The notes beneath the pieces were generated by a model. That model did not search any database, had not been told where the DNA came from, and worked only from the letters and a program-made list of their open reading frames with translations. The position numbers and the translations under genes are program-made. A stretch of DNA of 64,000 bases from assembly GCA_027622665.1 (NCBI GenBank), contig JAQBYT010000004.1, forward strand, positions 32,001 to 96,000, in the 5' to 3' direction. Below are positions 25,118 through 49,008 of the stretch, in pieces; position 1 is the first letter of the stretch; each line of letters begins with the position of its first letter. Origin of the DNA: Verrucomicrobiota bacterium. Its GTDB lineage: Bacteria > Verrucomicrobiota > Verrucomicrobiia > Opitutales > Seribacteraceae.

Positions 25118-25189
25118 GTAACCCATCTCCAGTTCGGACTGTATACTGTAAGATGACTTTTATTGTTCATGGAGCTTTCCGAGGAATTT
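25118..25189 (+). promoter_or_regulatory. ECF-type promoter motif copy A plus duplicated 5' end of the ECF sigma gene
   Basis: GTAACCCATCT-N10-CTGTATA...ATGACTTTTATTG...ATGGAGCTTTCCGAGGAATTT, matching 30602-30672. Confidence 0.75.
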
Positions 25190-25226
25190 TCTTTGCGCGC
25201 ACACGGACGCTACGAATGCATAGGGC

Positions 25227-28200
25227 ATGAACGTCCATTCCTATTCAGTTGCCCGCCAGTCCATCGGCTACTTGGAACACGCAGGGGCAAACTTGGCCAA
25301 AAGTCTGGGGAGGCTATCGTCGGGAACCAAGATCAATACCAGTGAGGACGATGCGGGCGGCCTTGCCGTTTCCGCCAAGATCAACTCGGCGATTACCAGA
25401 TCCTTGGCTCTTAAAGAAAACGTCCAGAACGGGCTCTCGTTTCTGGAAACACAAGACGCAGCCCAGAATCAACTAGGCGAAATCATAACCCGGATGGCGG
25501 AACTTCGCCAACGCTTCGACGACACAACCCGGAATTCCCAAGACGGCACCGTCTACAATCGGGAGTTCAAGGAACTGAAGGAAGAGGTCGAATCCTTAGC
25601 CAAAAAGAAATTCAACGGCATAAGCCTGTTTTCCAATGAGAGCGACGACAAGAGCAAGCTGATCGTAAACACCTCGGAAGATGGAAAAAACAGTTCCAGC
25701 GCAATCACCCGAAACCTATTCTTCAAGTCGATTCTGGAAACCAAGTCCCCCGGAGGACCTGTCGGGGCCACCAGAACCACGCAAGGCGCATTCGGTTCCT
25801 ACAGCGGCACCATAACGCCAACGGGCGACACCACCCCGGACCAAACCGTGAACGGCGCGGACGGAAGCACCCCGGCGCAACTGTTGAAGGGACTTCAAGG
25901 CACCACGACTACCCAAACGGTAAACGGGACAATCGGAGGAACCACGCCCAACCAAACCGTAAACGCCTTGCAAGGCTCAACTCCCGTCAAAAACGACCTG
26001 AAGGCGACTCAGGGAACGGTAAGCGGGCTTACGATCTCGGCGAAGCTAAACGGAACTCCCCCCGCCCCCTTGACCTTGAACGCAACGATCGGCAATGCGC
26101 CACAAGCATTATGGCAAGGGAGTTTCAATAACGTAAGCTCGGGATTTCATCGCCTTTCCCCAGTTTTCGACACTAACGGAGACATCATCGTGGGAACAAT
26201 GCAAGATGATGAGCTTTACAGGTTGGACCCGAACGACGGCCGAATACTGACCACCTACGACATGGGCAGCGGCGGAAACTTGTCATGGGAAAGCGCCGTG
26301 ACCGACGATACCGTTTACGCCGCCAACGGAGACGGCGACACTCTTTTTGCCTTCGACAAGGTTACTGGGGCGCAAAAATGGACCAAGACTCTATCCGGAA
26401 GGATTCAAGATCCACCCTTTGTCGCCTCCAACGGAAATATCTACATTGCTTGCGACTCGAGCGGTTTTACTCCGGGCGAAATCCATGCCTATCAACCGGA
26501 CGGGACGTCCTTGCCAGGCTGGCCCAAGCAGGAACACGGAACTTTTCGAGGAGGTTTTGCAGAGGCTGCGGACGGTACCTTGTACCTAACAAGCGGGCGC
26601 AACTTCGGCATACCTGCTCCTAAAACCCTTATGGCAATTGATCCGACAAGCGGCGCAATCAAATGGTCTAAAACTAATACCGAGATTAATAGAGTGTTGC
26701 GCGCCGCAGCGGTTGCCCCCGATCAATCGGTTGTTATAAATAGTCGAGACGGTGGTATTACCAGAGCTTTCAATCCCGATGGAACGGACAAGTGGACTTA
26801 CTCGAGTGGAGGCGATATTTTTGGGGGTCCAACCATCGATGCTGCGACGGGGAACGTTTTCGTCGCTTACGATAACGGTGTCGTGGCTCTTCAGTCAAAT
26901 GGAACAAACACTCCAAACGTATTGTGGAACTACTCCGCCGGATTCAACGCTCAGACGGTAACGCCCGCCTTCGATCCGGCAAGGAACTTGGTTTACGTTG
27001 CAAACACCGCCACGGGAGAAATCATTGCCCTTGACGCAACGGGAGGAGGGTCACCTGCGGGATCGGTAGCATGGACATACAATACGGGTTCCGCCGTCGT
27101 CGCGTCCCCCGCCCTAGACGCCAATGGAAACGTATACATCGGAAACACAAACGGAGATTTCTTCGCCATTTCCGTTTATGACTACATCAACAACCCGGCA
27201 GTCACTGACGGCATTGGGTCCAGCTACGATCCCGCCGAGCCTGCCCCGGCAGTCATCATTGACGGTGCGGACAAGGGAAGCTTGGCTGCAACGGCAACCG
27301 TAAACCCGGACGGCACGCTGAAACTAAATTTTACGGGAAAGGCATCGGGTGTGGGCAACTTGACGGCTACGATAAAAAACATAGCGGGCACTCCACCGCC
27401 GGCAGACCCGGCGGGAAGCAATTACCTGACGGCCGAAACGGCTCCTTCGGCCAGGGTATTGGCGGACGGGATCGCATCCAAACCGGCTACCCTGCAGGCA
27501 AACCTGATCTCCTTGATCGACGGCAATACCGCGGCACCCGCCGGCGGGGGAACCATAACGGATTCCTCGGGCAACGCGAACAATGGCACCGTGGCCGCAG
27601 GACAAGAACCCGGACAGGAAGTCAAGGAGCGAAGAACGGGAGCCGGAGCCTACGTATTCGACGGCAACAACGACAAGATTCTACTCGGAGACTTGAACGC
27701 CGCAATTGGAGGGCAAGACAAATTGACGATATCGGCTTAGATTTACCGGGAAGATACGGCGGACGACAGGATCGTCTGCAAGTCTTCCGGAACCAACGCG
27801 GGAGACCATGTGTTCAGCCTTGGAGTGGTGGACGCGGGATCAAGCCAAAGCAAGGTAAGGATGCACATAAGCACCGACACCATGGTTGCAGTGAGCATGG
27901 ACGGCTCGCTCACTTTTCCTCTAAATGAGTGGACTCACCTCGCCATGACTTACGACGGGACCAACCTGCGCTCATACGTCAACGGAGAACAAGACTCGAA
28001 CGTCTTTTCCGTGAACGGGAACATCAAGACCTCCACGGATCCCGTAACAATAGGAAACGTAAACAACGCCCAGAACAGGCACTTCGAAGGTATGCTCGAC
28101 GATGTGGGCATCTGGAACCGCGCCCTTTCCGCATCCGAGCTCGAGGATTTGGCAGGTCCGGGAAACCTCACCGCGACCACTGCAATCAATGCCGACGGCA

Positions 28201-30026
28201 GCTTGAAGGTCACTCCCGCCGGTACCCCCGCCACCGATGGCTCCTTCACGGTGGACGTTGATCCGGGGGTTCTCAACCTGCAGGGAATCTCCGAAACAGG
28301 CTCGGGATACGATGGGGCCACTCCCGAGTCAGCCCCCAACGTAACCATCACTGGAGCGGACAAGGGAACCGCTGCAGGAACCGCCACCGTGCGTGCGGAC
28401 GGCAAGCTGGACATAGCGTTCACAGGCACCCCGACGGGCACGGGCAACCTGACCCTGACCGTGGACCCCGGCGTCATCCGAAATCCCGCCGACCTCGTCG
28501 GCATCGCCAACCCGACCAACCTCTACGACCCCGCTGAGCCCGCACCGACCGTCACCATCACAGGAGCGGACAAGGGAACCCTTGCGGGAACCGCAACCAT
28601 TCGGCCTGACGGAAACGTAAATGTGGCGCTGGCAGGGATCCCCGCGGGGACGGGCAACTTGACTGTAGCAGTAGCCGACGGGCGAGACAAGGCGCCCGCG
28701 AACCTAGCGGGCATAGGATCAGGCTACGATCCGGGAGAGGCAGTTCCTGCAGTCACCATAACCGGAGCGGACGCGGGAACTCTTGCGGGAATTTCAACCA
28801 TCAACGCGAACGGCACCATCGACGTCGCCTTCTCCGGAAATCCCTCCGACATAGGGAACCTCACCGTGGCTGTGGCAGACGGCGTAGTTCGCAAGCCCGC
28901 CGACCTAACGTCCATAGGATCAGGATACGACCCCGCCGAGCCGGCGCCGGCAGTGACCTTTGCAGGAGCAAGCGCGGGAACGCTCTCGGGAACCTCCTCT
29001 ATCAATGGTGACGGCACCCTGAACGTGACCCTTGCCGGCGCTCCCACAGACACGAACGACGTCACGATGAACGTTGCAAACGGTCTACCGGGAGTAGCCG
29101 ACCTGACGGGCATTGGTTCAGGCTACACGACAGGTGATCCTGCTCCGGGCGTAACGGTTTCGGGAGCTAATGCGGGAACCTTGGCGGGAACTGCCTCGAT
29201 CAATGCCAACGGCACATTGGACGTGAACTTTACGGGAAATCCAAGCGACACCAACAACGTCACGGTACAAATCGCCGACGGGCTCGCACGAGTTGCAAAC
29301 CTCTCGGGCGTGGGGTCAGGATACGATCCGGGTGAGGCAGCCCCGGGCATCAGCATCACCGGAGCCAACAAGAACACCCTGAACGGCGCCGCGACAATCA
29401 ATGCAAACGGTACTTTAGATGTAAGCTTCGGCGGCAACCCGGCGGACTTCAACAGTCTGGGAATTCAAGCTGCAGACGGAGTCACTCAAGCCCCGAACGC
29501 ACTGACGGGACTGGGCGGGAATCACGATCCGGGTTCACCTCCTGCCGTTACCATTACGGGAGCGGACAAGGGTACGCTTGCCAGTGTAGCTAGCGTGAAT
29601 GCAGACGGCACTGTCAACGTCTCATTCACGGGGAGTCCATCAGGCCCAGGCCCATTGACTGTGCAAATCCCAGGTGGAGTTGCCTCGAATCCCATATCAA
29701 ACCAATACCTACTGGAAATAGATGGAGACTTGTGGGATTATACAGTGGCTGAGTTTGTTGCATTCACCTCGATAATCGCGGATGCCAGAGCCCAAAACGG
29801 CGCCGAGCAAAACTCCCTCAACACCAATTGGAATAGCCTTTCCACAAGAATCAACCAACTGGAACAAGCCAATGGGAGGATAACCGACACAGACTTTGCA
29901 GAAGAAATGACCAAACTGGGAAAATCTCAAATCCTCAGCCAGTCTGCATCCTCTATGCTTGCAAAATACAATCGAACCCAAACCGAGGCCCTCCTGAAGT
30001 TGCAAAACTTAGCAGGCAACCTCTAG
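25227..30026 (+). CDS. Giant flagellin (flagellin N- and C-terminal domains; PQQ-like propeller, LamG and repeat stalk inserted); single in-frame TAG at 27738-27740
   Basis: N-term LGRLSSGTKINTSEDDAGGLAVS...NVQNGLSFLETQD...KFNGISLF; C-term RAQNGAEQN...GRITDTDFAEEMTKLGKSQIL; ORFs 25227-27740 and 27810-30026 share a frame. Confidence 0.88.
27190..29695 (+). repeat. About nine ~63-70-aa Gly/Thr-rich repeats inside the flagellin
   Basis: Consensus xADLxGIGSGYDPxExAPxVTITGADxGTLAGTATINADGTLDVxFTGxPSxxGNLTVxVADG. Confidence 0.9.
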
Positions 30027-30059: not shown

Positions 30060-30496
30060 ATGCGATTTTCCATTGCCTTTCTCCTGCTCGTAGGTTGTCA
30101 GAGTAGAAACCTTGAAGAGACGCCAGATCTGGATGATCTGGAGGTCCTTGAGAAGATAGTCGCGTAGGCGATGGATGTTAAAAAACTGCAGTTTAAAAGA
30201 CGGGTTCTGTCGAAGAAGGCATATCTCCTTCCAAACCTGAAGAGCTCGTTGTTGAAACCAAGGTTAAACCAGATAGCGTGACATTTGAAGAATTGGAAAA
30301 ACATGAAGACCTCTATGACTTCAAGGTTTAGACACTCTCTTATACAGGTAAAGTTTTTGGATTTTATGAAAACAGACAGAAACACTTTGAAGGAGCTTTC
30401 AAGGACGGCGACATGAATGGACTGTGGATGAGGTGGCATGAAAACGGGCAGAAGATGTATGAAGGAAGGAACAATAACGGGGAAAAGTTTATGTAA
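30060..30496 (+). pseudogene. Degraded MORN-variant repeat lipoprotein
   Basis: MRFSIAFLLLVGC lipobox, TAG at 30165, frameshifts, then YTGKVFGFYENRQKHFEGAFKDGDMNGLWMRWHENGQKMYEG. Confidence 0.7.
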
Positions 30497-30520
30497 CCCA
30501 TCTACAGTTCCCGCTGTATA
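30493..30520 (+). promoter_or_regulatory. ECF-type promoter motif copy B
   Basis: GTAACCCATCT-ACAGTTCCCG-CTGTATA. Confidence 0.65.
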
Positions 30521-30564
30521 TATTCACATGACATTGATCCATTATGGACCTTCTTTGTTGTGCG

Positions 30565-30592
30565 AGGGGCGTAGGGTGGTTTCTACGCCCCT
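30565..30592. repeat. Perfect 10-bp-stem palindrome (REP-like or terminator)
   Basis: AGGGGCGTAG-ggtggttt-CTACGCCCCT. Confidence 0.7.
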
Positions 30593-30601
30593 AAATTTAT
30601 T

Positions 30602-30629
30602 GTAACCCATCTATAACTTTCGCTGTATA
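30602..30629 (+). promoter_or_regulatory. ECF-type promoter motif copy C, directly upstream of the sigma gene (candidate autoregulatory promoter)
   Basis: GTAACCCATCT-ATAACTTTCG-CTGTATA. Confidence 0.7.
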
Positions 30630-30651
30630 TTTAATATGACTTTTATTGCTT

Positions 30652-31158
30652 ATGGAGCTTTCCGAAGAATTTATTCTTGAGCTGACTGAGGTGCAGCAAA
30701 GGCTTTTCGGCTTCCTGTTCAAGCGATTGGCTGATCGCGAGCAAGCTCGTGAGGTGTTGCAGCGGACCAACCTGGTTTTGTGCCGTAAGGCAGACAACTA
30801 CGAATCAGGAACTAATTTCAAGGCATGGGCGATGACCGTGGCCAACTACGAAGTGATGGCCTATCGCAAAACGCAGGTTCGCGAACGCTTGGTGTTCACC
30901 GCCGAAGTGGATGCCATGATTGGTCCGGATGAAGACGGGAGATCCTCCGCTCAATCGGCTCACCTCAGTCACTGCCTGCAAGGCATGTCGTCGAAAAACC
31001 GGGAACTTCTTGATTGGCGATATCAAGGAGAGCACACCATGGAGAAGATCGCCGAGGATATTGGCAGCACGATCGGGGCGGTGAAGGTGAAACTGCATCG
31101 CCTGCGCCGACAATTGCTGGGCTGCATTCAAAACCGCATGCAAGAGGACGGAATATGA
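30652..31158 (+). CDS. ECF sigma-70 factor (Rhodopirellula/Verrucomicrobium type)
   Basis: AREVLQRTNLVL...GTNFKAWAMTVA; region 4 IAEDIGSTIGAVKVKLHRLRRQLLGCI. Confidence 0.93.
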   Translation: MELSEEFILELTEVQQRLFGFLFKRLADREQAREVLQRTNLVLCRKADNYESGTNFKAWAMTVANYEVMAYRKTQVRERLVFTAEVDAMIGPDEDGRSSAQSAHLSHCLQGMSSKNRELLDWRYQGEHTMEKIAEDIGSTIGAVKVKLHRLRRQLLGCIQNRMQEDGI

Positions 31159-32513
31159 AAGAAGAAGAAAAGTTATGGAAAGATGAACTGGATGCCCTGC
31201 TCGGCAAATTGGTGGACGAGGGTCTCACGGTTGCGGACAAGGCGCGGTTGAACGAGATCCTGCAAACCGAACCCGGGGCTCGGGAGTTCTACCATGAATA
31301 CCTCGATCTTCATGGTGCCCTGGAGGAACGTCTGGGTGTCCCGGACTTCTCCCCACTCAACGCCGTAATCGATCCCGAAACCAAGGAGGAATCCAAACCA
31401 GTCTTCATTCCTTTCGGAAATTGGGGATGGGCGGTAGCGGCCGCGGTGGTGATTGGGTTGTTTATCCAGTTTTTTCTGGAGCAAGAGGAAACCGAGCCCG
31501 AGCTACCTATTGCTCAAATTACGAAATTAAGCGGTCCTCTGCTTTGGACGGGTGATGGTGGCCAAGTGAATCGTAACCTGCAAGCAGGCTCCAAACTCTT
31601 CGGTGGAACCATCGAGGGCATGGCTCCCGACGCTTGGTTCGAACTGGAGTTCAATGATGGCTCGCAAGTCGTGATTGCAGGCAACTCCATGCTGACCATT
31701 TCCGACCTCGGACAAAAGGAGCTGCGTCTCAGGGAGGGGAGCTTTTCCGCCAACGTCATGCCCCAACCCAAAGGCAAGCCCATGCTCGTGCGCACCCGCT
31801 CCGCCTTGTTTGAAGTCATGGGCACCAGATTCAGCGTGGATGCCGAGTTGTCTTCCTCCACGCTCACGGTCAACGAAGGCAAGGTGAGGGCCACCCGTCT
31901 CAGTGATGGCAGCTCAGTGGAAGTAACTGCCAAGCACCGGGTCGTCGCTGCCTTGGATTGCGAACTCGTACCCGAAAAAATGCCGGAGTCCGTTACCCTT
32001 TGGCAAAGCCATTTGGAAAACGGAAGAAAACGCAATCACGGCGAATGGATGCCGGCCAATGGGGCGGAGCCGGCTCACCTGAATACCGTGCCTTATACCT
32101 TGCCCGCCAAGGACGACCGTAAGCAAAGAACCATCCACACCTTGAGCATGCCGGTTTCTCAAGGCGACCACCCCCCGGTTATCTTGCAACCTGAAACCAA
32201 AATTCGCGTTCGAGGCAAGATCGCTTCGAGTCATCCCATTTGGTTTGGTATGACGCTAAGTCGTCAAAACGGCGATTTCGCCGGCCGCTTTCAGATCCGT
32301 CGATCCGCCGAAGAATTCCAGAGTGGGGAACCGTTCGAGGTCGTCCTGAACCTAAGTGACTATGAACTGGATCCCTCCCTTGCCCAATGGGCGGACTCTT
32401 TGCCTAAGACACCCTACGGATTGATCGTCAAGGGCGTTTGGTGCCACACGCTCTGGGATCCGGCAGGCTTGCAGGTTTCCGAAATGGCACTGATGACCCC
32501 TACCGATAAATGA
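31155..32513 (+). CDS. FecR-domain anti-sigma factor
   Basis: ATGA overlap with the sigma gene; RLNEILQTEPGAREFY; one TM segment; FEVMGTRFSV, VNEGKV. Confidence 0.88.
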   Translation: MKEEEKLWKDELDALLGKLVDEGLTVADKARLNEILQTEPGAREFYHEYLDLHGALEERLGVPDFSPLNAVIDPETKEESKPVFIPFGNWGWAVAAAVVIGLFIQFFLEQEETEPELPIAQITKLSGPLLWTGDGGQVNRNLQAGSKLFGGTIEGMAPDAWFELEFNDGSQVVIAGNSMLTISDLGQKELRLREGSFSANVMPQPKGKPMLVRTRSALFEVMGTRFSVDAELSSSTLTVNEGKVRATRLSDGSSVEVTAKHRVVAALDCELVPEKMPESVTLWQSHLENGRKRNHGEWMPANGAEPAHLNTVPYTLPAKDDRKQRTIHTLSMPVSQGDHPPVILQPETKIRVRGKIASSHPIWFGMTLSRQNGDFAGRFQIRRSAEEFQSGEPFEVVLNLSDYELDPSLAQWADSLPKTPYGLIVKGVWCHTLWDPAGLQVSEMALMTPTDK

Positions 32514-33206: not shown

Positions 33207-35144
33207 ATGAAACAAAAAATAACGCTCACTATCTTAGCTTTCGCGTTGTCGGTTTCGCTGGCGGACGCTAACGAGATTCGCGGCAAGACCACAAAAGATG
33301 GCAAAGGCGTTGGCGGTGTGTTCGTTTCCGCTCACGATACGGAAAACCGCAAGGCCTCGGGCGTATTTACCGCCTCCGACGGTACCTATGTCATCGATGG
33401 TCTGCGCGAAAAGGATTATCGGGTACGCGCACGGCAAAAAGGCCTGAACGACGTTTGGCTCGACGAGATCACCGCCGGTTCCAAAGGCATCGAAATCAAG
33501 ATGACGAACGCCACCGGATGGAAACTTGAACGCCAGCGTACGGCCGATAGTGCCTTTGGTATGCTCAAATTTGATGATGTCCGCGACAAGCTGAACTTCA
33601 AAATGTTCTGTGCCTACTGTCACCAGATCGGCACGGTTGGCTTCCGTACCCCGGAAGAACCGGTGGACTGGGAAACCATGATCCGGCGAATGGATGGGTT
33701 CGGCGGCCTCTATTCGCATACCAAGCGCACAATCGTAAAGCGCATCATGGACTCTTACACAGGGGAGGCCGTCGACAATTGGCTGAAGTATGTGCCTCCA
33801 CCCCCTCCTGCTGGAGCAGCCACCAAGGCGAAGATCACCTGGTGGGAGATGGGCAAACGCTACGAGTCGCAGTACCATGACATCGATCTCACTCCGGATG
33901 GTCGATTGATCTATGCGGTAAATATAACAAAGAATTATATTGTGACCGTGGATACCAAAACCGACAAACAGGTTTACAAAAAATTCCCCCGTGGCTCTTA
34001 CGGAGCACATTCCATTGAGCCGGACAACGACGGCCACATGTGGGTTACAATGTGTGCCTCAGGCCAGATGGCAAAGTACGACATCCATAATAAAGAGATT
34101 GAGGTATACAGTAGTGCCGAGGCTCCTGCGAAACGGGGCGGATACCCGCACACCTTACGGATCAACCCGAAGGATCCCGAGGGACTCATCTGGTACACGG
34201 ATGCCGGACGCAACTCGGTATTTTCCTTGCACCCGAAAACCAAGCTCGTGAAGGAATACCATCTCTTAAGCGCAAACCAAGCCGTCGCCGCAGGGAAAGG
34301 AGAGAGTAAAGGTATCACGCCCTATGGCATCGATTTCTCTCCGGTCGACGGCATGATCTGGTACAGCAAACTCAACGGCAACCGCATCGGACGTATTGAC
34401 CCGAGCAAGCTCGACGGCGACGTCAAGGAATGGAATCCCCCTTTCCGTGGTCCAAGGCGACTGCACGTTGCCCCGGACGGAATAATTTGGGTCCCTGGTT
34501 TTGGCTCGGGTGTATTTGGGAAGTTCGATCCCGATACCGAGAAATGGCTTGTGTACGACCTGCCGAACAAGGACAACCAAATCCCCTACGCCCTCAACGT
34601 TGCCCCTAATGGGCATGTGTGGATCTGTGGGACCGGCAACGACACCATTCATCGATTCAATCCAAAGACTGAGATGCTCGTAACGTATCCTTTGCCCAAC
34701 AGGGTAAGCTACACGCGAGAGATCGAGTTCGACACTGATGGCAACGTATGGACTCCAACAAGCGGGCCCTCCCGTCATATGGAGACCGGCTATGGCGCCA
34801 TCATCAAGATTGAGCCCAACGACCTGAGTGACTCAGGTGGCATCAAGCTCAAGGGTTATATGCCTGACCGCAGCAAGCTCACCTACGAGCAACCCCGTAG
34901 GATTAACTACAATGGTTCCAACGCCAAGTTACTTACCCGGATTGCCAAAATTCAACTCCCACAAGCCTACCTCAACGGCAAACACCAGCCATACGTCGAT
35001 GCACGAATGAAGAATTTAACCAACCAACAAAAACACCGCATCCATATTCTATGGCAGGAACTGCGTAAGTCTGACCCGGACATGCCCAATGCCGGTCAAT
35101 CCTTTGTGCGGATCATGGAGTACGTGTTCAATAACGTTAAATAA
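33207..35144 (+). CDS. Exported protein: carboxypeptidase-regulatory-like domain + c-type haem + Vgb-like beta-propeller + unrecognised C-terminal helical module
   Basis: FTASDGTYVIDGL; CAYCHQIG; IWYTD, PYGIDFSPVDGMIWY, GPRRLHVAPDGIIWV, PYALNVAPNGHVW. Confidence 0.8.
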   Translation: MKQKITLTILAFALSVSLADANEIRGKTTKDGKGVGGVFVSAHDTENRKASGVFTASDGTYVIDGLREKDYRVRARQKGLNDVWLDEITAGSKGIEIKMTNATGWKLERQRTADSAFGMLKFDDVRDKLNFKMFCAYCHQIGTVGFRTPEEPVDWETMIRRMDGFGGLYSHTKRTIVKRIMDSYTGEAVDNWLKYVPPPPPAGAATKAKITWWEMGKRYESQYHDIDLTPDGRLIYAVNITKNYIVTVDTKTDKQVYKKFPRGSYGAHSIEPDNDGHMWVTMCASGQMAKYDIHNKEIEVYSSAEAPAKRGGYPHTLRINPKDPEGLIWYTDAGRNSVFSLHPKTKLVKEYHLLSANQAVAAGKGESKGITPYGIDFSPVDGMIWYSKLNGNRIGRIDPSKLDGDVKEWNPPFRGPRRLHVAPDGIIWVPGFGSGVFGKFDPDTEKWLVYDLPNKDNQIPYALNVAPNGHVWICGTGNDTIHRFNPKTEMLVTYPLPNRVSYTREIEFDTDGNVWTPTSGPSRHMETGYGAIIKIEPNDLSDSGGIKLKGYMPDRSKLTYEQPRRINYNGSNAKLLTRIAKIQLPQAYLNGKHQPYVDARMKNLTNQQKHRIHILWQELRKSDPDMPNAGQSFVRIMEYVFNNVK

Positions 35145-35146
35145 TC

Positions 35147-35851
35147 ATGAAGATCCTTGCTTTGTTACTCCTTTCGACCGCGTCTGCAATGGCCGCGGAG
35201 GTTTCCGGCGTCATCAAGCTTGACGGCCCACAACCCAAGCGTCCGCCGCTACAGCTTACCCCCGAAAGCCGCAAGCTCTACGAGGGGCTTCCCTACCCAC
35301 AAGACGAAGTGGAACTGGTTAATGCCAAGAGTGAAATCCAGAACGTCTTTGTCTATATCCGCAAAGGTCTGCCCGCTGGTAAGACCTACCCTGCGCCGAA
35401 AAAGGCGGCCTTGCTCGACCAGCAACGGTCCATGTTCCGTCCGCGCATTCAAGGCCTGTTCGTCGGTCAGGAATTCACAATGCGCAACAGTGATCCCATC
35501 ATCCATAACGTGCGCTCTCTTTCGCAGGAAAACCGGCCCTTCAACGTTGCTCAACCAGCCGGCACGCCCGACCGCTTAAAGCGGTTCAGCGACAAGGAAG
35601 GTCCCATCGAGTTGCGCTGTGACTACCACCGTTGGATGCGGGCGTTTGTTTTCGTAATGGAGCATCCCTTCTTCGGAGTCACCGATGCGCAAGGCCGATT
35701 TACCATCAAGAATCTCCCACCCGGCGAATACGTTTTGGCCACTTGGCATGAGTCATTTGGTGAAAACAAGCAAACCATCCAAGTTGCCGTTGACGGATTA
35801 AAGAAGGTAAACTTCACTTACAAACCGAAGAAAGGATTGAATTTCGAGTGA
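35147..35851 (+). CDS. Exported cupredoxin-like/carboxypeptidase-regulatory-like protein
   Basis: NSDPIIHNV...CDYHRWM (possible type-1 Cu ligands); TDAQGRFTIKNLPPGEY. Confidence 0.75.
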   Translation: MKILALLLLSTASAMAAEVSGVIKLDGPQPKRPPLQLTPESRKLYEGLPYPQDEVELVNAKSEIQNVFVYIRKGLPAGKTYPAPKKAALLDQQRSMFRPRIQGLFVGQEFTMRNSDPIIHNVRSLSQENRPFNVAQPAGTPDRLKRFSDKEGPIELRCDYHRWMRAFVFVMEHPFFGVTDAQGRFTIKNLPPGEYVLATWHESFGENKQTIQVAVDGLKKVNFTYKPKKGLNFE

Positions 35852-37860
35852 GAAGCCTCTGCCTAATACTGCTTGCGTTGCTGAACGTTTCCTTGGTCGC
35901 CGCACCGAGGGAAATAGGTAATCCGTCCTTTCTCAGCCCGCATGCCCGGCCTATCGTTGCGCACGGGGATTACGTTTTCGTGGCCAACACTCCCTCGGAC
36001 ACCGTCGACGTCATCGACGCGAAATCGCGCAAAATCATCCACCGCATCGACGTGGGCATCGATCCTGTCAGCCTGGCCGTTCGTCCCGATGGCCGTGAAC
36101 TGTGGGTGGCCAATCACGTTTCCGATTCGGTCAGCGTGATTGACCTCGATCAGTCGAAAAAAACCTTCATGCACGTCGTCGCCACCGTTCAAGATATCAA
36201 CCCAAAGACCAAGGCCACCCGCTTCGACGAACCCATTGGGATTGCCTTTGCCAACGACAGGAAGGCTTACGTCGCCCTGTCCTCAGAGAACAAAATCGCG
36301 GTGGTGGACGTCGCTAGCCGAAAAGTGACCAAGGGCTTGCCGGTCCGGGCTCAGGACCCCCGGGCCATCATGGTGCGCAACGGCAAACTGTACGTCCTTC
36401 CTTTCGAGTCCAACAACAAGACCCAGTTGTCCGGCGGATACAAGATCGATGGCAAGCTCGTTACCTTCAACGCCCATGAGCATTCCATTGCCAATAACAA
36501 CGTTTTGTCCTTGGGTCACGTGACCGATATCGTGAAGCACCCGCGCGTTCCCGACCGGGACTTGTTCGTATTCGACGTGAAGACCGACAACCTCATTCAG
36601 ACCGTCGATACCCTCGGCACCTTGCTTTACGGCATGACTGTGGATTCCAAGGGTACGGTCTTCGTTGCCCAGACCGATGCCAGGAACGACGTCAACGGTC
36701 GGGCAGGGACCAAAAAGCACGGTCTCAAGGAACTGGGCAACCGGGCTTTTCTCAACCAAGTCACCAAGGTTCGCTTTGAGGGAGGCAAGGCCCGCAAGCC
36801 CGAGTTTCTCGATCTGGAGCCTTTGCCCCCGCAAAACCCGGCGGATGGGATGGCCTTGGCCACACCTTTCGCCATAGAGGTGAGCGGGGACGATTCCACA
36901 CTCTTCGTTTCGGCGGCGGGTTCGGACAAGGTTTTCTCGATGGATGCGGTTAGCGGTAAAGTAATTGGACGGGTCAAGGTCGGGGCGGTTCCCCGTGGGA
37001 TCGCCCTTTCGCCCGCTCATGGTGGTAAGCCCAAGCGGGCCTGGGTCCTCAATGCGGTGGAGAACTCGGTTTCCGTTCTCGACGTCTCCAATCCCAGAAG
37101 CCTCCGAGTGGTCCGGACGATTCCCCTTGAAGATCACTCCCATCCCGAGTTCAAGGCCGGGCGGATTGCTTTCAATCGGGCCGATGCTTCATCGACCAAG
37201 ACTTTTTCCTGCGCCAGTTGTCACCCGGACGGGCATACCGATCAATTGCTCTGGGTCTTGAAGACTCCGATTGTTTCGGGGGGCAACCAGATCATGCCCC
37301 GTTCCACCATGCCGGTGCGCGGCCTGCGCGACACTGCTCCTTTTCACTGGGACGGCATCCCGGGCGATCCCTACGGAGGCACCAACAGCGCCAGCGTACG
37401 CAAGGCGGTCAAGCCAAACAGCGATCCGAACGACCCGACCAGCGCTCCTCGCCACTTGGTGGACGCGGGTTTGGCCTCGACCATGAAGCTGGTGGGGGAC
37501 GACTCGACAAACGACGAGGGGAAAGCGGGCTTGATGACCTCCGCGGAACGGGACTCCCTGTCCAAGTTCCTGCTCGGAGTGACTTACCCACCTGCTCAAC
37601 GCCGAGCCTATGAGAATGAGCTGAGTCAAGAAGCGGAAGCAAATCGTCCTACCTCACCATCAGGTCGACTATGTCCGTCAGGTTTCGTGGCACAAATCCC
37701 CATACGGCGAGTTGCTCAAGAAGATCGACGCCATGCCGGCGCCGAAAGGCATCCCGGTCAACAAGACGCTCGACAAGCACTTCAAGAAGCGAATGGCGAG
37801 CTTCACCGAAAAGCAGCGAGGCCGGTTCAATACCTTGCGCCAAGGAATGGATCGCGTTGA
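35848..37860 (+). CDS. YncE/YVTN beta-propeller fused to a cytochrome c peroxidase-like haem domain; 3' end apparently truncated near 37635
   Basis: VGIDPVSLAVRPDGRELWVAN repeats; SCASCHPDG; APFHWDG; tail after ELSQEAE looks out of frame. Confidence 0.75.
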   Translation: MRSLCLILLALLNVSLVAAPREIGNPSFLSPHARPIVAHGDYVFVANTPSDTVDVIDAKSRKIIHRIDVGIDPVSLAVRPDGRELWVANHVSDSVSVIDLDQSKKTFMHVVATVQDINPKTKATRFDEPIGIAFANDRKAYVALSSENKIAVVDVASRKVTKGLPVRAQDPRAIMVRNGKLYVLPFESNNKTQLSGGYKIDGKLVTFNAHEHSIANNNVLSLGHVTDIVKHPRVPDRDLFVFDVKTDNLIQTVDTLGTLLYGMTVDSKGTVFVAQTDARNDVNGRAGTKKHGLKELGNRAFLNQVTKVRFEGGKARKPEFLDLEPLPPQNPADGMALATPFAIEVSGDDSTLFVSAAGSDKVFSMDAVSGKVIGRVKVGAVPRGIALSPAHGGKPKRAWVLNAVENSVSVLDVSNPRSLRVVRTIPLEDHSHPEFKAGRIAFNRADASSTKTFSCASCHPDGHTDQLLWVLKTPIVSGGNQIMPRSTMPVRGLRDTAPFHWDGIPGDPYGGTNSASVRKAVKPNSDPNDPTSAPRHLVDAGLASTMKLVGDDSTNDEGKAGLMTSAERDSLSKFLLGVTYPPAQRRAYENELSQEAEANRPTSPSGRLCPSGFVAQIPIRRVAQEDRRHAGAERHPGQQDARQALQEANGELHRKAARPVQYLAPRNGSR

Positions 37861-37930
37861 TCCCAACATGGAAAATCGCGGGCTTTCGTACCTCAAGATT
37901 CTCGAATACATCCATCATAATGAGAAGTAG
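37625..37930 (+). pseudogene. Orphan 3' gene fragment carrying the shared helical module
   Basis: Frame open from 37625: ...PYGELLKKIDAMPAP...DPNMENRGLSYLKILEYI. Confidence 0.65.
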
Positions 37931-37959
37931 ATGGAGTGAATGCTGACTGAATAAATAAC

Positions 37960-40900
37960 GTGAAACCCATCCCCGCATTTTTATGCTCCCTGTTGCTACT
38001 TTGCCAAGGCTTTGCCAAGGACAAACAGCCCAATGTCGTCACTCTACTCGTCGACGACCTCGGCTACCGCGACCTCGGCTGTTACGGTGGTCCCGTCAAG
38101 ACCCCGGTCCTCGACAAGTTGGCTGCAGGGGGTGTGCGCTTCACCGATTTTCACTCGGGAGCGCCTTCCTGTTCCCCCTCGCGCGCCACCTTTCTCACGG
38201 GCCGCAACCATCGTCGCACCGGAGTCTACTCCGTCATCACCGAACGCCTTCACAAGATGCATCTCTCGAAGAGCGAAACGACCATCGCGGAGGTGCTCAA
38301 GGAAAACGGCTACGGCACCGCCCACTTCGGCAAGTGGCACCTAGGCATGCCCGTCCAAAATCGCAAGAATCCCACCCCCGGCGATCATGGCTTCGACTAC
38401 TGGTTCGGCCTCGTCAATGGCCCGGGCCCTAGCCACAAGAACCCGACCCAGTTTCTGCGCAATGGTAAACGCGTGGGACAGATGAAAGGCTACTCCTGCC
38501 AAATCGTCGTCGATGAGGCCCTTACCTGGCTCGATGAAAAGCGCGACGACGACGAGCCCTTCTTTCTCAATCTCTGGTTCAACGAACCCCACGCCCCGAT
38601 CGCGGCGCCCGACGAGATCGTCTCCCAGTATGGCGCGCTCAACGATCAAGCCGCGATCTACAGCGGCACCATCGACAACACGGATCGGGCGATTGGGCGA
38701 CTCGTCGCCAAGCTCGAGCAACTCGGCGAGCTCGACAACACCATTATTCACTACTCCTCCGACAACGGCAGTTACCGTCAGGAGCGCAGCGGAGAACTGC
38801 GTGGCCAGAAAGGGTCGCTCTTCGAAGGCGGGCACCGCGTTCCCGGGATCATTTGCTGGAAAGGCGGAATCCCCGGCGGTCGCGTCGAGGACGAGCCTGC
38901 AGGAGCGGTCGACCTACTCCCGACCCTCTGCGGATTGATCGGTATCGAAAAACCCGCGAAGGTCCATCTCGACGGCTCCGACCTCGCTCCTCTGCTCACC
39001 AAGTCAGGCAACTTCGAGAGGCATCAGCCCCTCTTCTGGATGAGTGAGGGACCCATGGTCATGAGAGTGGGGGATCACACTCTTTTTGCATCCGTCACTG
39101 CGAAATCGTCGATCGACTTTAAAGTCGCCGATCGACTCACGGAGCAAATCAAGGAAGTCCTCGGCGATGATCTCGAGAAAGTGCTGGACGGAATGGATGT
39201 TAAGGATCTTCGCTCCCGCCTATTTAATCACGGGAGATTAGCCAATCCCGAGGCCGACCGACTGCGGAACCAACTTCGGGACTTGTACTACTTCAACGAA
39301 GCGTGGATCCCCGAACTCAAAAAGAGCGGGATCGGCCGTGTTCAACTGTATGACCTATCGAAGGATCTCGGTCAGCAAAACGACATTGCGAAAGAGCGCC
39401 CCGAACTCGTCGCCCGACTGAAAAAGCAGGCCGCTGCCATTCACAGAAGTGTCATGGCCGAAGCTCCGGAATGGCTCACCCCTGAAGAACAGGCCGCCGC
39501 GAAGAAGCCTCAAGCAGATTCACCTGATCGGCCCGCCACCGGAGCACCCGAGACCGATACCGCGAAGCTCCTCGCCCGCATCGACAAGAATGACATTCCC
39601 AAGGTCTACCACGGAAGCCGCCACCAGGCCTACGTCGACAAGGTCATGGCCGGAATCAAACCCGAACAGCGTGCCCGGGTCGGCCAACTCTGGAAAGAAA
39701 AGCGCCGCCTCGATTCTGACATGTCCAACCCGGGAGCCTCTTTCGTCAGGATTCTCACCTACGTCGCCGGAGAGGCAGGAAAAAGCAAATCGCCCAATGT
39801 TGTTTTCTTGCTTGCCGATGACCTGGGCTGGAAGGATATCGGCTGCTATGGCGGCCCGGTGAAGACGCCCGCACTCGATACACTCGCCGCCAAGGGGATG
39901 CGCTTTACTGATTTCCATTCGGGTGCGGCGGTCTGTTCGACTTCTCGAGCCACAATCCTGACCGGACGGCATCACATTCGTGCGGGCCTGTACAGCTGGA
40001 TCATGAATCACATCCAGCATTCGCATCTACTCGAACGCGAGATCACGCTCGCCGAAATGCTCAAAGCCCACGGCTACACCACTGCACACATGGGCAAATG
40101 GCACCTTGGTACGTCCTCAGGTAAATTGAAAAAACCGACCCTCAACGATCACGGGTTTGATTACTGGTTCGCAACTGCCAATAACGCAAACCCAAGCCAC
40201 CTCAATCCAGTCAACTTTGTTCGCAATGGCAAACGCCTTGGCCAGCTCAAAGGCTACTCCTGTCAACTCGTGGTCGATGAAGCCATTCATTGGCTGGAAA
40301 AGGAACGCGACCCAAAAAAGCCATTCTTCCTGAACCTGTGGTTCCACGAACCGCATGCGCCAATTGCCGCACCGGACGAACTCGTGAAGCCCTATGGCCC
40401 ACTCAAGAATCCCAGCGCTATCTATTCGGGCACCATCGATAAGACCGACCGCGCCATCGCGCGACTCCTCAAGAAGCTGCACGCCATCGACAAGCCTGAG
40501 AACACCATCATCATTTATTCCTCAGACAACGGCAGTTACCGCCACGATCGCGTGGGTCATTTGCGCGGCATCAAGGGCAGTAACTATGAGGGAGGCATCC
40601 GTGTGCCGGGCATTTTTTATTGGCCCGGTCACATCCCTTCCGGACGAACCGAGGATGAACCTTCGGGTCTGGTGGATTTACTCCCCACAATCTGTGGATT
40701 GGTGGGCATCAATAAACCTGAGGGTGTACACTTGGATGGAGCCGATCTCTCACCACTGTTGACTGGAAAAGGCAAGTTCAAGCGGAAGCAACACATGGCC
40801 TGGATTAGCCCACTCTCCGGACCCGCGCTGGCCATTCGTGATGGTGATTGGAGCTTATGCGCTCACGTAGCCTATGAGTTTCCCAAGGACAAAAAAAAGA

Positions 40901-41259
40901 TGGCTCAGCTTTATAAGGAAATTGAGGCCACCCTACGCCGCAATGGCACTTATGAAGACGAATTACGGGGAGAAACACTGGCCAGTCAAATTCATGAGGG
41001 TTTTAAGGATAAGGAAGCAGAAAAACTACGCGGGCAGTATATTCAACTCAACATGTTCAATGAAAACTGGATTCCTGCCATAAAAAACGGCCACTACCAC
41101 CGGTTCGAATTATACAACCTTGCCAAGGACCCTTCGCAGAAGAAAAACATAGCTAAAGCCCATCCGGAAGTTTTTAACCGTTTAAAACATGAGCTACTCA
41201 AGATCAACGCCAGCGTCATGGCCGATGGCCCGGACTGGCACCTAAAAGAAAACCCATGA
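37960..41259 (+). CDS. Tandem double sulfatase with the shared helical module in the linker
   Basis: Two full domains: DDLGYRD/CSPSRA/GKWHLG and DDLGWKD/CSTSRA/GKWHLG; 1099 aa. Confidence 0.92.
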   Translation: MKPIPAFLCSLLLLCQGFAKDKQPNVVTLLVDDLGYRDLGCYGGPVKTPVLDKLAAGGVRFTDFHSGAPSCSPSRATFLTGRNHRRTGVYSVITERLHKMHLSKSETTIAEVLKENGYGTAHFGKWHLGMPVQNRKNPTPGDHGFDYWFGLVNGPGPSHKNPTQFLRNGKRVGQMKGYSCQIVVDEALTWLDEKRDDDEPFFLNLWFNEPHAPIAAPDEIVSQYGALNDQAAIYSGTIDNTDRAIGRLVAKLEQLGELDNTIIHYSSDNGSYRQERSGELRGQKGSLFEGGHRVPGIICWKGGIPGGRVEDEPAGAVDLLPTLCGLIGIEKPAKVHLDGSDLAPLLTKSGNFERHQPLFWMSEGPMVMRVGDHTLFASVTAKSSIDFKVADRLTEQIKEVLGDDLEKVLDGMDVKDLRSRLFNHGRLANPEADRLRNQLRDLYYFNEAWIPELKKSGIGRVQLYDLSKDLGQQNDIAKERPELVARLKKQAAAIHRSVMAEAPEWLTPEEQAAAKKPQADSPDRPATGAPETDTAKLLARIDKNDIPKVYHGSRHQAYVDKVMAGIKPEQRARVGQLWKEKRRLDSDMSNPGASFVRILTYVAGEAGKSKSPNVVFLLADDLGWKDIGCYGGPVKTPALDTLAAKGMRFTDFHSGAAVCSTSRATILTGRHHIRAGLYSWIMNHIQHSHLLEREITLAEMLKAHGYTTAHMGKWHLGTSSGKLKKPTLNDHGFDYWFATANNANPSHLNPVNFVRNGKRLGQLKGYSCQLVVDEAIHWLEKERDPKKPFFLNLWFHEPHAPIAAPDELVKPYGPLKNPSAIYSGTIDKTDRAIARLLKKLHAIDKPENTIIIYSSDNGSYRHDRVGHLRGIKGSNYEGGIRVPGIFYWPGHIPSGRTEDEPSGLVDLLPTICGLVGINKPEGVHLDGADLSPLLTGKGKFKRKQHMAWISPLSGPALAIRDGDWSLCAHVAYEFPKDKKKMAQLYKEIEATLRRNGTYEDELRGETLASQIHEGFKDKEAEKLRGQYIQLNMFNENWIPAIKNGHYHRFELYNLAKDPSQKKNIAKAHPEVFNRLKHELLKINASVMADGPDWHLKENP

Positions 41260-43688: not shown

Positions 43689-44929
43689 AACTAAACCGAA
43701 GAACCTTTTTACGAAGCACCGGCGTGGCGATGGCGTTGCCGTGGCTGGAATCGATCCAACCGGCTTGGGGCAAGGAGCTGGCTCCGCCGAAACGGATGGT
43801 CTTCATTTGCAACACGCTTGGCCTGCACGCGCCAGCGTTGTTCCCCAAAAAGACCGGGGCCGACTACGAATTGACCGATTACCTGAGCATCATCAAGGCA
43901 CACCGGAAAGACTTTACCTTATTCTCCGGGCTTTCCCACCCGCAACAAGGTGGCGAACACCTGTGCGAGATGACTTGGCTGAGCGCAGCCCCAAACCCCG
44001 GCATGGACGGCTTCCAAAACTCGATCTCGGTCGACCAATACGCGGCCGGCAAACTCGGCTACGTCACGCGCTTTCCGTCCGTGTCACTAAGCAGCGACTC
44101 CTCAACCAGTCAGTCCTATACCGGTAGCGGGGTAATGATACCCGCCGAGCAACGCCCATCACACATGTTTGCGAAAATGTTCCTGCGCGGCAAACCGGAG
44201 GAGATCGCTCGTCAAAAACAAAAGCTGGCCGAGGGCCGCAGCGTGCTGGACGAGTTGCTCAGCCAAACCAGGATACTGCTCAAGAACGCGCCGGGAGCCG
44301 ACCGCGAGCGGTTGCAGGAATATTTCGAATCCGTCCGCACCGCGGAAAAGAACCTCGCCGAGGAACAGGTCTGGTTCGATCGTCCCAAGCCGGAAGTGCA
44401 GGCCAAGGCTCCGCCGGACATCCACGACAAGACCGACCTCGTCGGCCGCATCCGGCTGCTGTTCAATCTCGTTCCTCTGATCATACAGACTGATTCCTCG
44501 CGCGTGATCAGTGTCGTCATCCAAAATAACCACGGCGTGCCGCAGGTCGAAGGCGTCGATTCCGAGCACCACAACCTCTCGCATCACGGGCGCGATCCCA
44601 AGCGAATTCAGCAATTGCTCAAGATCGAACGCGCCATTATGGGTTGTTTCGACGAATTCCTCACTGCCATGAAAACCAAGCGCGAGGGGGGAGGCACATT
44701 GCTCGACAACACCACCACGCTTTTCGGCAGCAACTTGGGCAACGCCAGCGCCCACGATCCACGCAACAACCCCATACTGCTCGCCGGGGGCGGGCTCAAA
44801 CACGGCCGTTATCTTGCCCACGATGCCAAGAACAACACGCCGCTCTGCAACCTCTTCGTGCATATGCTCAACCAGATGAACCTCAATACCGATCAGTTTG
44901 CCAGCAGTACCGGCGAACTAACTCTTTAA
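43685..44929 (+). CDS. DUF1552-family protein (Tat)
   Basis: LNRRTFLR, ISVDQ, HHNLSHHG, LLDNT, PILLAGG; usual partner of DUF1592. Confidence 0.9.
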   Translation: MKLNRRTFLRSTGVAMALPWLESIQPAWGKELAPPKRMVFICNTLGLHAPALFPKKTGADYELTDYLSIIKAHRKDFTLFSGLSHPQQGGEHLCEMTWLSAAPNPGMDGFQNSISVDQYAAGKLGYVTRFPSVSLSSDSSTSQSYTGSGVMIPAEQRPSHMFAKMFLRGKPEEIARQKQKLAEGRSVLDELLSQTRILLKNAPGADRERLQEYFESVRTAEKNLAEEQVWFDRPKPEVQAKAPPDIHDKTDLVGRIRLLFNLVPLIIQTDSSRVISVVIQNNHGVPQVEGVDSEHHNLSHHGRDPKRIQQLLKIERAIMGCFDEFLTAMKTKREGGGTLLDNTTTLFGSNLGNASAHDPRNNPILLAGGGLKHGRYLAHDAKNNTPLCNLFVHMLNQMNLNTDQFASSTGELTL

Positions 44930-44930
44930 C

Positions 44931-46322
44931 ATGAAAAGCTTCTCCACACTTTGCGTCGCCCTGTTGGGCATGAACTTATCTGCAAACGCCGACGACTTCA
45001 CCAAGGCGAAAGCCTCCAACTGGCATCATTGGCGTGGGCCGGATGCAAACGGAGTCGCCACTACGGCGAAACCACCCACCCACTGGAGTGAGAAAAAGAA
45101 CATCCGTTGGAAAGCGCCGGTCGAGGGCTTTGGAACATCCACTCCCATTGTGTGGGGTAACAAAGTCTTTCTTCTTACTGCCATCAATACCGGCAGGGTG
45201 GATCCTTCCCTCCCGCGTCCGGAGGATCAACCCAAGCGCGTCTTCGACATCACGCACCCGAACACGACCTACGAGTTCATCGTACTTTGCTTGGACCGCA
45301 AGACGGGGAAAACACTTTGGCGGAGGGTGGTCACCAAAATGATTCCTCACGAGGGTACCCACCGGGACAACAACTTTGCCTCGGCATCGCCCTCCACCGA
45401 TGGCGAGCGCCTATATTGCTGGTTCGGTTCGGCGGGCTTGTTTTGCTACGACTTGGAGGGTAAGAAACTTTGGGAGCGCAACCTGGGCAAGGTCAAGATC
45501 GGGGCGAGCCTGGGGGAGGGGTGCTCACCAGTTTTGCACAAGGGCAAACTGGTTGTGGTTCGAGACAATCGGGGACAGTCGACCATACATGTTTTGAATT
45601 CCAAAAATGGAGAAACCATTTGGATGAAAAACCGGAACACCCGCAACGGATGGTCCACGCCTGCAGTCGTTGAGCATGAAGGCAAAACTCAGGTGATCAC
45701 TACCGCCTCCAGGCAAAAGGAGGGGGATCGTTCGAATCCCGGCAAGGTGATCAGTTATGATCTTGAGAATGGGAACGTAATCTGGGAATGCTCCGGTCTG
45801 ACTGACAATGCGATCCCATGCCCAATCGTTGAAGACGGGGTTGCTTACTGTATGACGGGATACCAAGGTTTTTCCGTACTCGCCGTGCCCATTTCGGGGA
45901 AGGGAGACCAGTCGGAGAATATCCTATGGAGAGGGAATTTGGGAACCCCCTACGTTCCGTCCGCCGTACTTTATGACGGGCTTCTTTATTTTACCCAGTC
46001 CAACCAGGCCATCCTTTCCTGTGTCGATGCAAAAACCGGTAAGGTTCTCATGGAGCGAACCCGGATCAAAGGTTTGTCCAACGTCTATGCCTCGCTCACC
46101 GGGGCGGGTAATCACGTCTACGTGTTCGGGCGCTACGGAAAGACAGCCGTGATCAAGAGAACGGGCAAGTTCGACTTGGTGTCTACGAACGTCTTGGCCG
46201 ACCGCTTCGACGCATCGCCCGCGGTAGTAGGCGGTCAACTTTTCTTGCGTGGACATAAATTTCTCTACTGCATCGAGTCAGATTCTAATCCCACTAATCA
46301 AAACAAGGAGACAATCAGATGA
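44931..46322 (+). CDS. PQQ-binding-like (BamB-like) beta-propeller
   Basis: NWHHWRGP, STPIVWG, ASASPSTDGE, WSTP, ASPA. Confidence 0.88.
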   Translation: MKSFSTLCVALLGMNLSANADDFTKAKASNWHHWRGPDANGVATTAKPPTHWSEKKNIRWKAPVEGFGTSTPIVWGNKVFLLTAINTGRVDPSLPRPEDQPKRVFDITHPNTTYEFIVLCLDRKTGKTLWRRVVTKMIPHEGTHRDNNFASASPSTDGERLYCWFGSAGLFCYDLEGKKLWERNLGKVKIGASLGEGCSPVLHKGKLVVVRDNRGQSTIHVLNSKNGETIWMKNRNTRNGWSTPAVVEHEGKTQVITTASRQKEGDRSNPGKVISYDLENGNVIWECSGLTDNAIPCPIVEDGVAYCMTGYQGFSVLAVPISGKGDQSENILWRGNLGTPYVPSAVLYDGLLYFTQSNQAILSCVDAKTGKVLMERTRIKGLSNVYASLTGAGNHVYVFGRYGKTAVIKRTGKFDLVSTNVLADRFDASPAVVGGQLFLRGHKFLYCIESDSNPTNQNKETIR

Positions 46323-48586: not shown

Positions 48587-48750
48587 TGTTACCCGTGGCC
48601 AAGTTGCCAGTTCAGCCATCGGCCGACCAGGACATGGAGCTCGCCACCCTTGCAGGGAGATACGACTTAACAAAGAACAGCACCCCTGACCAGAAACTTT
48701 CTTGGACACAGATTCCTCCATTGTGTATAAAGAATTGCTAGAAATAAATT

Positions 48751-49008
48751 ATGAACATGACCAAAGATAATCTCCGTACCTTTCTAGGGTGGTGCACGGT
48801 CATTAACCTAGGACTCCTTTTATATTGGATTCTCGCTCTTGTCTTTGCCCGCGACTGGGTGTTTTGGGTTCACACTTCGGCGGTTGAGATATCCAAAGAG
48901 AGCTTTGCCGAAATCAATTACGCCATGATGGGTTACTACAAACTGGCGGTGATTCTTTTCAACGTGACTCCGTACTTGGTACTCAGGTTCGCAAAGTTCT
49001 CCCGATAA
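48751..49008 (+). CDS. Small membrane protein (DUF6868-like)
   Basis: FLGWCTVINLGLL...YKLAVILFNVTPYLVL; upstream TGGACA-N17-TATAAA. Confidence 0.75.
   Translation: MNMTKDNLRTFLGWCTVINLGLLLYWILALVFARDWVFWVHTSAVEISKESFAEINYAMMGYYKLAVILFNVTPYLVLRFAKFSR

Follow-up and report, generated by a model that had tools for sequence, protein, structure and literature searches.

What would a bacterium do with a flagellin of some 1,600 codons that carries a beta-propeller and a LamG domain between its two flagellin ends, and what becomes of such a protein when a stop codon lies inside its reading frame? Both questions are raised by a gene at 25227..30026 (forward strand) of a 64,000-nucleotide stretch of DNA, here called the window (positions 32,001-96,000 of contig JAQBYT010000004.1, assembly GCA_027622665.1), from a Verrucomicrobiota bacterium placed by GTDB in Verrucomicrobiota; Verrucomicrobiia; Opitutales; Seribacteraceae, whose genome (G000) is 93.5% complete. 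The stop is a natural polymorphic nonsense allele, the consensus in some populations only. As to function, we lean slightly towards a model where the intact allele encodes a minor filament subunit that displays swappable binding heads on a two-pass stalk: the 1599-residue protein is likely exported via the flagellar system and built into the filament as a minor subunit, and its propeller and LamG domain are predicted to be held about 35-40 nm away from it.

The gene, its domains and its relatives

The gene comprises 1599 codons plus a stop, with one in-frame TAG inside (1600 codons in all), and every domain scores above its Pfam cut-off; the protein of the intact allele (P0001) is the same save for residue 838. 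The N-terminal D0/D1 (25227..25721) was placed by Pfam (Flagellin_N, PF00669, residues 14-138, E 1e-16), alignment and tree, and the C-terminal D1/D0 (29712..30026) by Pfam (Flagellin_C, PF00700, residues 1517-1587, E 1e-13). Between these ends, all on the forward strand, lie nine beta-strand-like units of ~12 residues (25764..26093; repeat analysis), an 8-bladed PQQ-like/BamB-like beta-propeller (26097..27182; PQQ_2, PF13360, E 2e-21, with model and fold search), and nine beta repeats of ~66 residues, hereafter modules. Module 1 (27204..27407; repeat analysis) is followed by module 2 (27408..28292; Pfam, repeats and model), which a LamG/ConA-like jelly-roll interrupts (core 27507-28160; Laminin_G_3, PF13385, E 1e-23 to 1e-28 over the Pfam scans), and by modules 3-9 (28293..29711; repeats and model), which are tandem four-strand repeats. 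A preliminary description, made from the letters alone, had placed the propeller at about 26110-27175 and the LamG domain at about 27500-28150; the Pfam scan bears out both, and the peptides it quoted are present in the translation. Its single ~1,600-codon flagellin stands as regards flagellin ends and domains and falls as regards an uninterrupted reading frame. Similarly, the polymerisation domains that it called canonical are recognisable to Pfam, but not fully canonical, as their extreme ends differ from those of short flagellins. As a set of observations, it is partly confirmed.

The assignment to flagellins is consistent across methods. Flagellin models reach 101.7 bits on the giant protein, and the FlgL model TIGR02550 gives 51.5 bits, below both those models and its own cut-off. 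In a D0/D1 tree of 33 rows, with long branches and no clade test, the giant-flagellin lineage forms one clade (100/99), separate from short flagellins and FlgL. The FlgL/HAP3 label, a JGI name carried by several relatives, was rejected on these scores; moreover, a separate flgL follows flgK on contig C3 and falls outside the clade. Both D0/D1 halves are full length and carry core motifs across the giant-flagellin family. At 1599 residues (intact allele) and 1228-2283 (relatives), these proteins exceed the 1000 residues that mark giant flagellins, and no peptidase family was found in the window protein by Pfam and NCBIfam scans, so that it is not a flagellinolysin.

At E<=1e-20, 33 proteins match, of which 20 have both flagellin ends and a propeller according to our own hidden Markov models (HMMs); among the matches are flagellins that have one propeller or two, may lack LamG, and vary in their number of modules. 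The relatives carry only Opitutales or Opitutia labels. A pattern scan of 185,579 species genomes kept 77 loci, five of them matching beyond LamG at high identity, all from Opitutia/Verrucomicrobiota. The module profile found 28 matches among 1.84 billion representatives; among its 22 new proteins, ten have a flagellin domain, most others are fragment-like and two are unrelated. A phage origin of the repeats was considered and rejected, given that neither modules nor linker matched any PHROG. The architecture that the preliminary description proposed to look for elsewhere does occur, in intact relatives of the same Opitutales family.

The genome also has what such a subunit would require. A flagellar cluster on C3 holds fliE-R, flhAB, flgB-L, motAB, a fliA-like sigma gene, fliW and csrA; the genome has fliD and fliS as well, and export, hook, junction, cap and chaperone genes are all present. 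None of 47 open reading frames (ORFs) taken from this cluster and fliD has a tblastn match in the window, in agreement with the earlier remark that no other flagellar gene is found there. The suggestion of a minor flagellin gains from short canonical-ended flagellins encoded alongside the full export, motor and cap set. These short flagellins would be able to build the filament, and the giant would be accessory.

The in-frame TAG codon

The TAG at 27738..27740 (forward strand; codon 838, in LamG), recognised by translation and by comparison of runs and relatives, divides the protein into 837 and 761 residues. Fourteen DNA runs hold most of the gene; among the six of these that were compared, TAG is present on contigs of three (X1, X2 and X6) and TGG on contigs of the other three (X9, X12 and X13). 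P0001 is identical to the window protein except for Trp838. The cluster has 31 members, and the 15 listed include five full-length proteins with Trp and two that terminate at the stop; Trp occupies the site in 4/4 genome orthologues and in 5/5 metagenome relatives covering it. The split among runs, the existence of P0001 and the Trp in all orthologues indicate a segregating nonsense allele, not an assembly junction. An assembly error, a stop that is read through, or misassembled halves would explain the codon otherwise, and two of the three TAG runs (X1 and X2) may indeed be the source of the window DNA; yet X6, not flagged as a source, has a TAG contig spanning 25000-28734, and P0040 is a second 837-residue record. 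TAG is an ordinary stop in this genome, ending 602 of ~2,290 long ORFs (including the giant flagellin gene itself), and no TAG-reading tRNA occurs among the 38 tRNAs found. Misassembly of the two halves, raised in the preliminary description as what could undo it, is contradicted by single contigs of other runs that span the gene and by full-length relatives of the same layout. We hold this whole group of explanations to be highly improbable.

The loss appears recent, since pairwise ratios of nonsynonymous to synonymous substitution rates (dN/dS) against the relatives L075, L076 and G015 are purifying on both sides of the stop (0.12-0.30 before, 0.13-0.18 after). RNA-library runs from two studies, X15 and X16, have scattered pieces before and after the stop, in 8 and 9 of 30 bins respectively; their contigs do not cover the stop itself and DNA carry-over is possible, so that they do not demonstrate transcription. 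An 837-residue product that lacks the C-terminal D0/D1 could not polymerise, and the 3' half has no export signal. The window allele would therefore yield no full subunit, while the gene looks functional in the population and in its relatives, judging by their sequences.

Strands, modules and the heads they would carry

What lies between the flagellin ends may follow a simple numerical rule. From D1 the chain runs through the ~12-residue units to the propeller and on through the ~66-residue modules, with LamG inserted into module 2; units and modules both number nine in the window protein. By HMM counts, 16 of 22 proteins have as many units as modules, and these span six size classes (6, 9, 11, 12, 13 and 15); a regular-expression count, which missed diverged modules, gave 6 of 22 matches. 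Among non-redundant proteins 8 of 14 match, a number that 0 of 100,000 shuffles reached, and the linker grows by 12.6 residues per 66.5 module residues in 13 LamG-type proteins (rho 0.93), with a rho of 0.72 in nine LamG-less proteins; these statistics all treat kin proteins as if independent. Close pairs differ by paired indels of 12+66 (in a 99% identical pair), 25+134, 50+268 and 37+about 200 residues, a period of 12 going with one of 66 and 25 with 134. The short P0091 (804 residues) has three strands, a propeller and three modules. Unpaired changes are also seen: in three pairs modules were lost with no strands or with an unequal number of them, and in one, three strands were gained along with two modules.

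From the paired counts and paired indels we infer an out-and-back stalk. The chain would exit D1 as the run of ~12-residue strands (outgoing leg), turn at the propeller, and return via the modules, of which 3-9 form the tandem part. The simplest reading of the co-variation seems to be that one outgoing strand completes each module; stalk length would then alter only by paired gain or loss. At 0.34 nm x 12.2 per unit, the rod is estimated at 24-26 nm for six units, 36-38 nm for the nine of the window protein, and 60-64 nm for 15. An AlphaFold model of the intact relative L075 (residues 190-1365) has a mean predicted local distance difference test score (pLDDT) of 72 and a predicted template modelling score of 0.46, with a confident propeller (pLDDT mostly 80-90), a LamG beta-sandwich and four- to five-strand modules; four inner units form paired strands at pLDDT about 55-75. 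The stalk would amount to the classical out-and-back topology of flagellins, repeated 3-15 times. Chaperone-usher pili, with their donor-strand complementation, and stalked adhesins (invasin, for one) likewise combine a rod of incomplete beta-sandwiches, which a strand from elsewhere completes, with a binding domain at the tip; here, however, the strands would come from the protein's own outgoing leg.

The heads themselves are probably binding domains, a role to which their position and the lack of any enzyme match point. The propeller matches YxaL best (7eq5; Z 36.1, root-mean-square deviation 2.2, 323 aligned residues), followed by WD40 proteins and BamB (Z 31-33); Bap1, a matrix protein of Vibrio, stands lower in the list (Z 28.5, rank 27 of 50), and so do PQQ dehydrogenases (Z 28-29), whose chains are much longer. 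Such likeness of fold does not establish a function. Among close alleles, pairwise dN/dS is 0.34-0.44 for the propeller and 0.11-0.14 for LamG. The heads may bind an external surface or polymer and thus provide a variable catch surface.

Several observations weigh against a stalked subunit that displays binding heads. Six of the 22 proteins disagree in unit and module counts (12/11, 12/10, 11/9, 9/7, 5/6 and 8/4), five of them being short of modules, perhaps because tandem repeats collapsed or the HMMs missed some. In the L075 model the outer units fall below a pLDDT of 50 and the full zip is not seen, and a second model, of a LamG-less relative from G066 (1200 residues, 15 sequences), is uninformative, with a pLDDT of 45.5 and an unfolded linker. 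The nearest folds of the propeller are mostly protein-binding scaffolds, not lectins, and the closest solved sequences for LamG are weak (E 3e-7 to 1e-3), from pappalysin, S-layer and arabinanase domains. The extreme D0 ends have diverged from those of the genome's short flagellins, which would also suit a protein that does not polymerise. The distribution is patchy as well: 12 of 76 family genomes match P0005 (E<=1e-45), one of them (G060) via a non-flagellin propeller. Finally, MB11C04, the family to which this genome may belong, has flagellar genes, and its flagellar proteins are found in metaproteomes, yet its cells are single and unattached to particles (PMC8857213); the mean GC content given there, 43%, differs from the ~52% of this genome. 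Overall, the earlier interpretation of a minor flagellin presenting adhesin- or lectin-like domains on the filament is partly supported.

Exchange, regulation and the flagellins of the family

Judged by alignment, heads and whole cassettes are shown to be exchanged between genes, across genera too. Against L076 (G055, genus g5), the nucleotide identity of the window gene is 93% from about codon 63 to codon 1535, but 57-66% at the two ends. P0002 has ends 92-97% like those of P0007 around a P0001-type cassette, and P0005 combines ends 97% like P0017 with a propeller 87% like P0001 and a LamG 96% like P0003. The window copy itself is absent from the locus where G003-G005 carry their orthologue (empty in G000) and is not at the G015 locus either.

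Its promoter region differs from that of most relatives. The sigma-28 consensus is TAAA-N15-GCCGAT-like. A motif of this kind lies 117-128 bases upstream of the gene in G003, G015, L076/G055 and L078, where it scores 10/10 (a score reached by 1/400 random windows), and is also found in G086, G066 and G065. Upstream of the window copy and of L075 the best score is only 7/10; some short flagellins too are without such a motif within 350 bases. In its place, at 25118..25192 (forward strand), motif comparison finds a copy of the upstream motif of an extracytoplasmic function (ECF) sigma gene (GTAACC-N15-CTGTATA), together with that gene's first codons. Downstream on the same strand follow a decayed small lipoprotein-like gene (30060..30480; sequence comparison), which is intact 3' of the flagellin in G007, two more copies of the ECF upstream motif (30493..30630; motif comparison), and, by profile scan, the ECF sigma factor (TIGR02989, above cut-off) with a FecR-like putative anti-sigma (weak match), at 30652..32513, as candidate regulators. 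The motif is kept before this ECF gene in 5/5 genomes of three genera. The 5' region of the ECF gene is tandemly duplicated in the window (30480-30660), in G006 and in G003 (L087, L090), which marks the locus as prone to duplication of promoter pieces. L075, 96% identical, has the same promoter arrangement, a dN/dS of 0.16-0.25 and no frameshift, and its sequence shows that the arrangement persisted under purifying selection. The window copy would be either re-wired to the neighbouring ECF or decaying; a minor flagellin under the control of an ECF sigma factor has been reported elsewhere (PMC12826043).

Decay in its full form would mean that the gene is, in this species, a relocated and promoterless passenger, both alleles being non-functional and function confined to relatives. 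The nonsense allele and the missing sigma-28 motif suit this proposal, as do the decayed neighbour, the other broken paralogues of the genome and the absence from the locus where G003-G005 carry the orthologue. Against it stand L075 with its purifying dN/dS, the five full-length Trp alleles among the 15 listed cluster members, and the RNA-library contigs of two studies that flank the stop, subject to the carry-over noted above. We regard this as unlikely, and it is in part compatible with a minor subunit on the filament.

The same promoter difference bears on another proposal, in which the flagellin ends serve as an export tag or chaperone handle, and the protein is released as a free matrix or surface-coating protein. 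Vibrio FlaE and FlaF are secreted by the flagellum, occur outside filaments and bind exopolysaccharide (Jung et al. 2019; PMC6692518). Besides this precedent, the diverged D0 ends, the separate and well-supported clade, the presence of Bap1 among the propeller matches and the unlinking of the window copy from a flagellar promoter motif would all fit release. On the other hand, the D0/D1 halves are full length with core motifs kept across the family, the sigma-28-like motif is present in 6/6 other genomes having the upstream region, and paired-indel growth of a stalk would make most sense on an anchored subunit. Release is, in our view, an unlikely alternative. The giant would resemble FlaE/FlaF as an extra flagellin paralogue that the flagellar apparatus exports and that binds polysaccharide; FlaE and FlaF, however, are of normal size, carry no added domains and are found outside the filament (PMC6692518).

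The giant flagellin is one of many. Genome G000 has 14 Flagellin_N matches, one of them FlgL, hence about 13 flagellins, and in family f1 such matches occur in 49/52 genomes, with a median of 8, a maximum of 33 and 24 genomes with at least 10, numbers of matches that are not copy numbers. High flagellin diversity in Verrucomicrobia has been mentioned before (PMC7018530). Chemoreceptors are scarce: a methyl-accepting chemotaxis protein (MCP) is found in 2/52 genomes of f1, and G000 has no MCP match. The proposed catch surface would therefore sit on the flagellum of a nearly chemoreceptor-less family. The other flagellins of G000 are short canonical-ended, Peptidase_M9-like, weakly Lectin_C-like, with unnamed inserts, or a second giant. 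A 585-residue flagellin on C30 (L024:4165-5919) has a Peptidase_M9-like domain with an HExxH-type motif and is a flagellinolysin-like paralogue, and one of 422 residues on C55 (L023:7190-8455; Lectin_C E 0.002, below cut-off) adjoins another decorated flagellin and an ECF sigma gene. The second giant lineage lies beside secA and is split by the assembly (L020:7807-9381, end of C26; L019:5168-6493, end of C14); intact members of 1650-2060 residues in G005, G006 and G013 likewise combine propellers and modules with runs of strands, which in some of them lie after the propeller. Three paralogues look broken (C58 16100-17400, C44 92600-93900 and C42 9400-11000), in that one has an in-frame TGA, another lacks the C-terminal domain, and a third is a C-terminal half whose N-terminus is not intact. 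FlgK (1084 residues), FlgL (1072, weak CBM_5_12) and FliD (at least 971) are enlarged too (L018:8806-15276 and L021:9861-12773), while the hook gene is short (294 residues). Near the flagellar cluster, C3:2-12661 is an open frame that encodes adhesin-like repeats and runs to at least 4219 residues.

Such numbers, together with frequent head and cassette exchange and a nonsense allele that forms the consensus of only some populations, could also point to armour or decoys against flagellotropic phages or grazers, with swapping and on/off loss driven by escape; a Campylobacter minor flagellin is reported to have an anti-phage role (PMC5126078). Yet the heads are under purifying, not diversifying, selection, as their dN/dS values given above indicate, and we find this account decidedly unlikely.

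The window also holds other genes. After the ECF/anti-sigma pair come Vgb-like and YVTN beta-propeller proteins with cytochrome c-type motifs (33207-37960), the gene at 35848 being seemingly frameshifted near its end, and a 1099-residue protein with two sulfatase-like domains (37951-41256); a crude motif count gives 46 sulfatase-like ORFs genome-wide. The stretch 44900-49100 has 80-91% DNA identity to genes that follow the flagellin at loci of genus g5 (L077, L099), and this similarity suggests that it is part of a shared mobile sulfatase region.

How much of this is new? Giant flagellins, domain-bearing flagellins, and LamG or WD40 inserts are already known. Giant flagellins of 1020-1190 residues were described in Bermanella marisrubri and Oleibacter marinus, and UniProt 2017 contained 92 Flagellin_N proteins of giant size (Thomson et al. 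2018; PMC6248924). The present family is like them in exceeding 1000 residues, in its marine setting and in the internal repeats between conserved D0/D1; theirs, however, is the sole flagellin, with DE/DX regions and no named heads, whereas the paralogues here, of 1.2-2.3 kaa, are accessory, bear propeller and LamG heads and are laid out as strands plus modules. Verrucomicrobiota was not found among the phyla that PMC6248924 lists for giant flagellins. Eckhard et al. (2017; PMC5595980) reported 61 inserted domain types in flagellins, including vWFA and sialidase, and established flagellinolysin as a minor functional flagellin within filaments. The giant would share with flagellinolysins an accessory nature and a functional domain in the hypervariable region, and differs in having no peptidase match, the M9-like domain being found in its C30 paralogue. 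Fields et al. (2024; PMC11532411) found Ig-like (immunoglobulin-like) outer domains to be common, with a WD40 propeller cluster (#55) and 8 Laminin_G_3 rows, and catalogued Opitutae flagellins with M9 peptidase and Lectin_C inserts. In the rows available from that catalogue, the 33 labelled 'Opitut' and 10 labelled 'Verrucomicrob' are all <=679 residues, no row at all has PF13360, PF13570 or PQQ, and the combination of propeller, LamG and stalk is absent. No account of the architecture turned up in searches of open-access text, with the reservation that the 61-domain list of PMC5595980 may be an image, invisible to a text search. What this family adds, rather than size alone, is the proposed paired-indel rule of the stalk, the swapping of heads, and the pattern of many flagellins with almost no chemoreceptors.

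A broader picture, possible though doubtful, would take the marine Opitutales flagellum as a modular display scaffold. It would carry at least a dozen accessory flagellins with peptidase, lectin-like and propeller heads, the largest flagellins bearing theirs on telescoping stalks of 25-60 nm formed by strand complementation within one chain. Recombination in D1 would exchange heads between genera; in this species, one stalked flagellin would have moved under a substrate-sensing ECF sigma and been switched off by a segregating nonsense allele. If the rule of one strand per module is true, the reach of a flagellin would be set by paired indels, and a subunit of 2,000 residues would pass the export channel unfolded and yet form a rigid arm of great length, which could serve as a natural scaffold for display on flagella. 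The TAG/TGG polymorphism is a natural knockout that can be tracked in existing time series. The family also poses an ecological puzzle, namely the purpose of a non-chemotactic flagellum in marine polysaccharide degraders.

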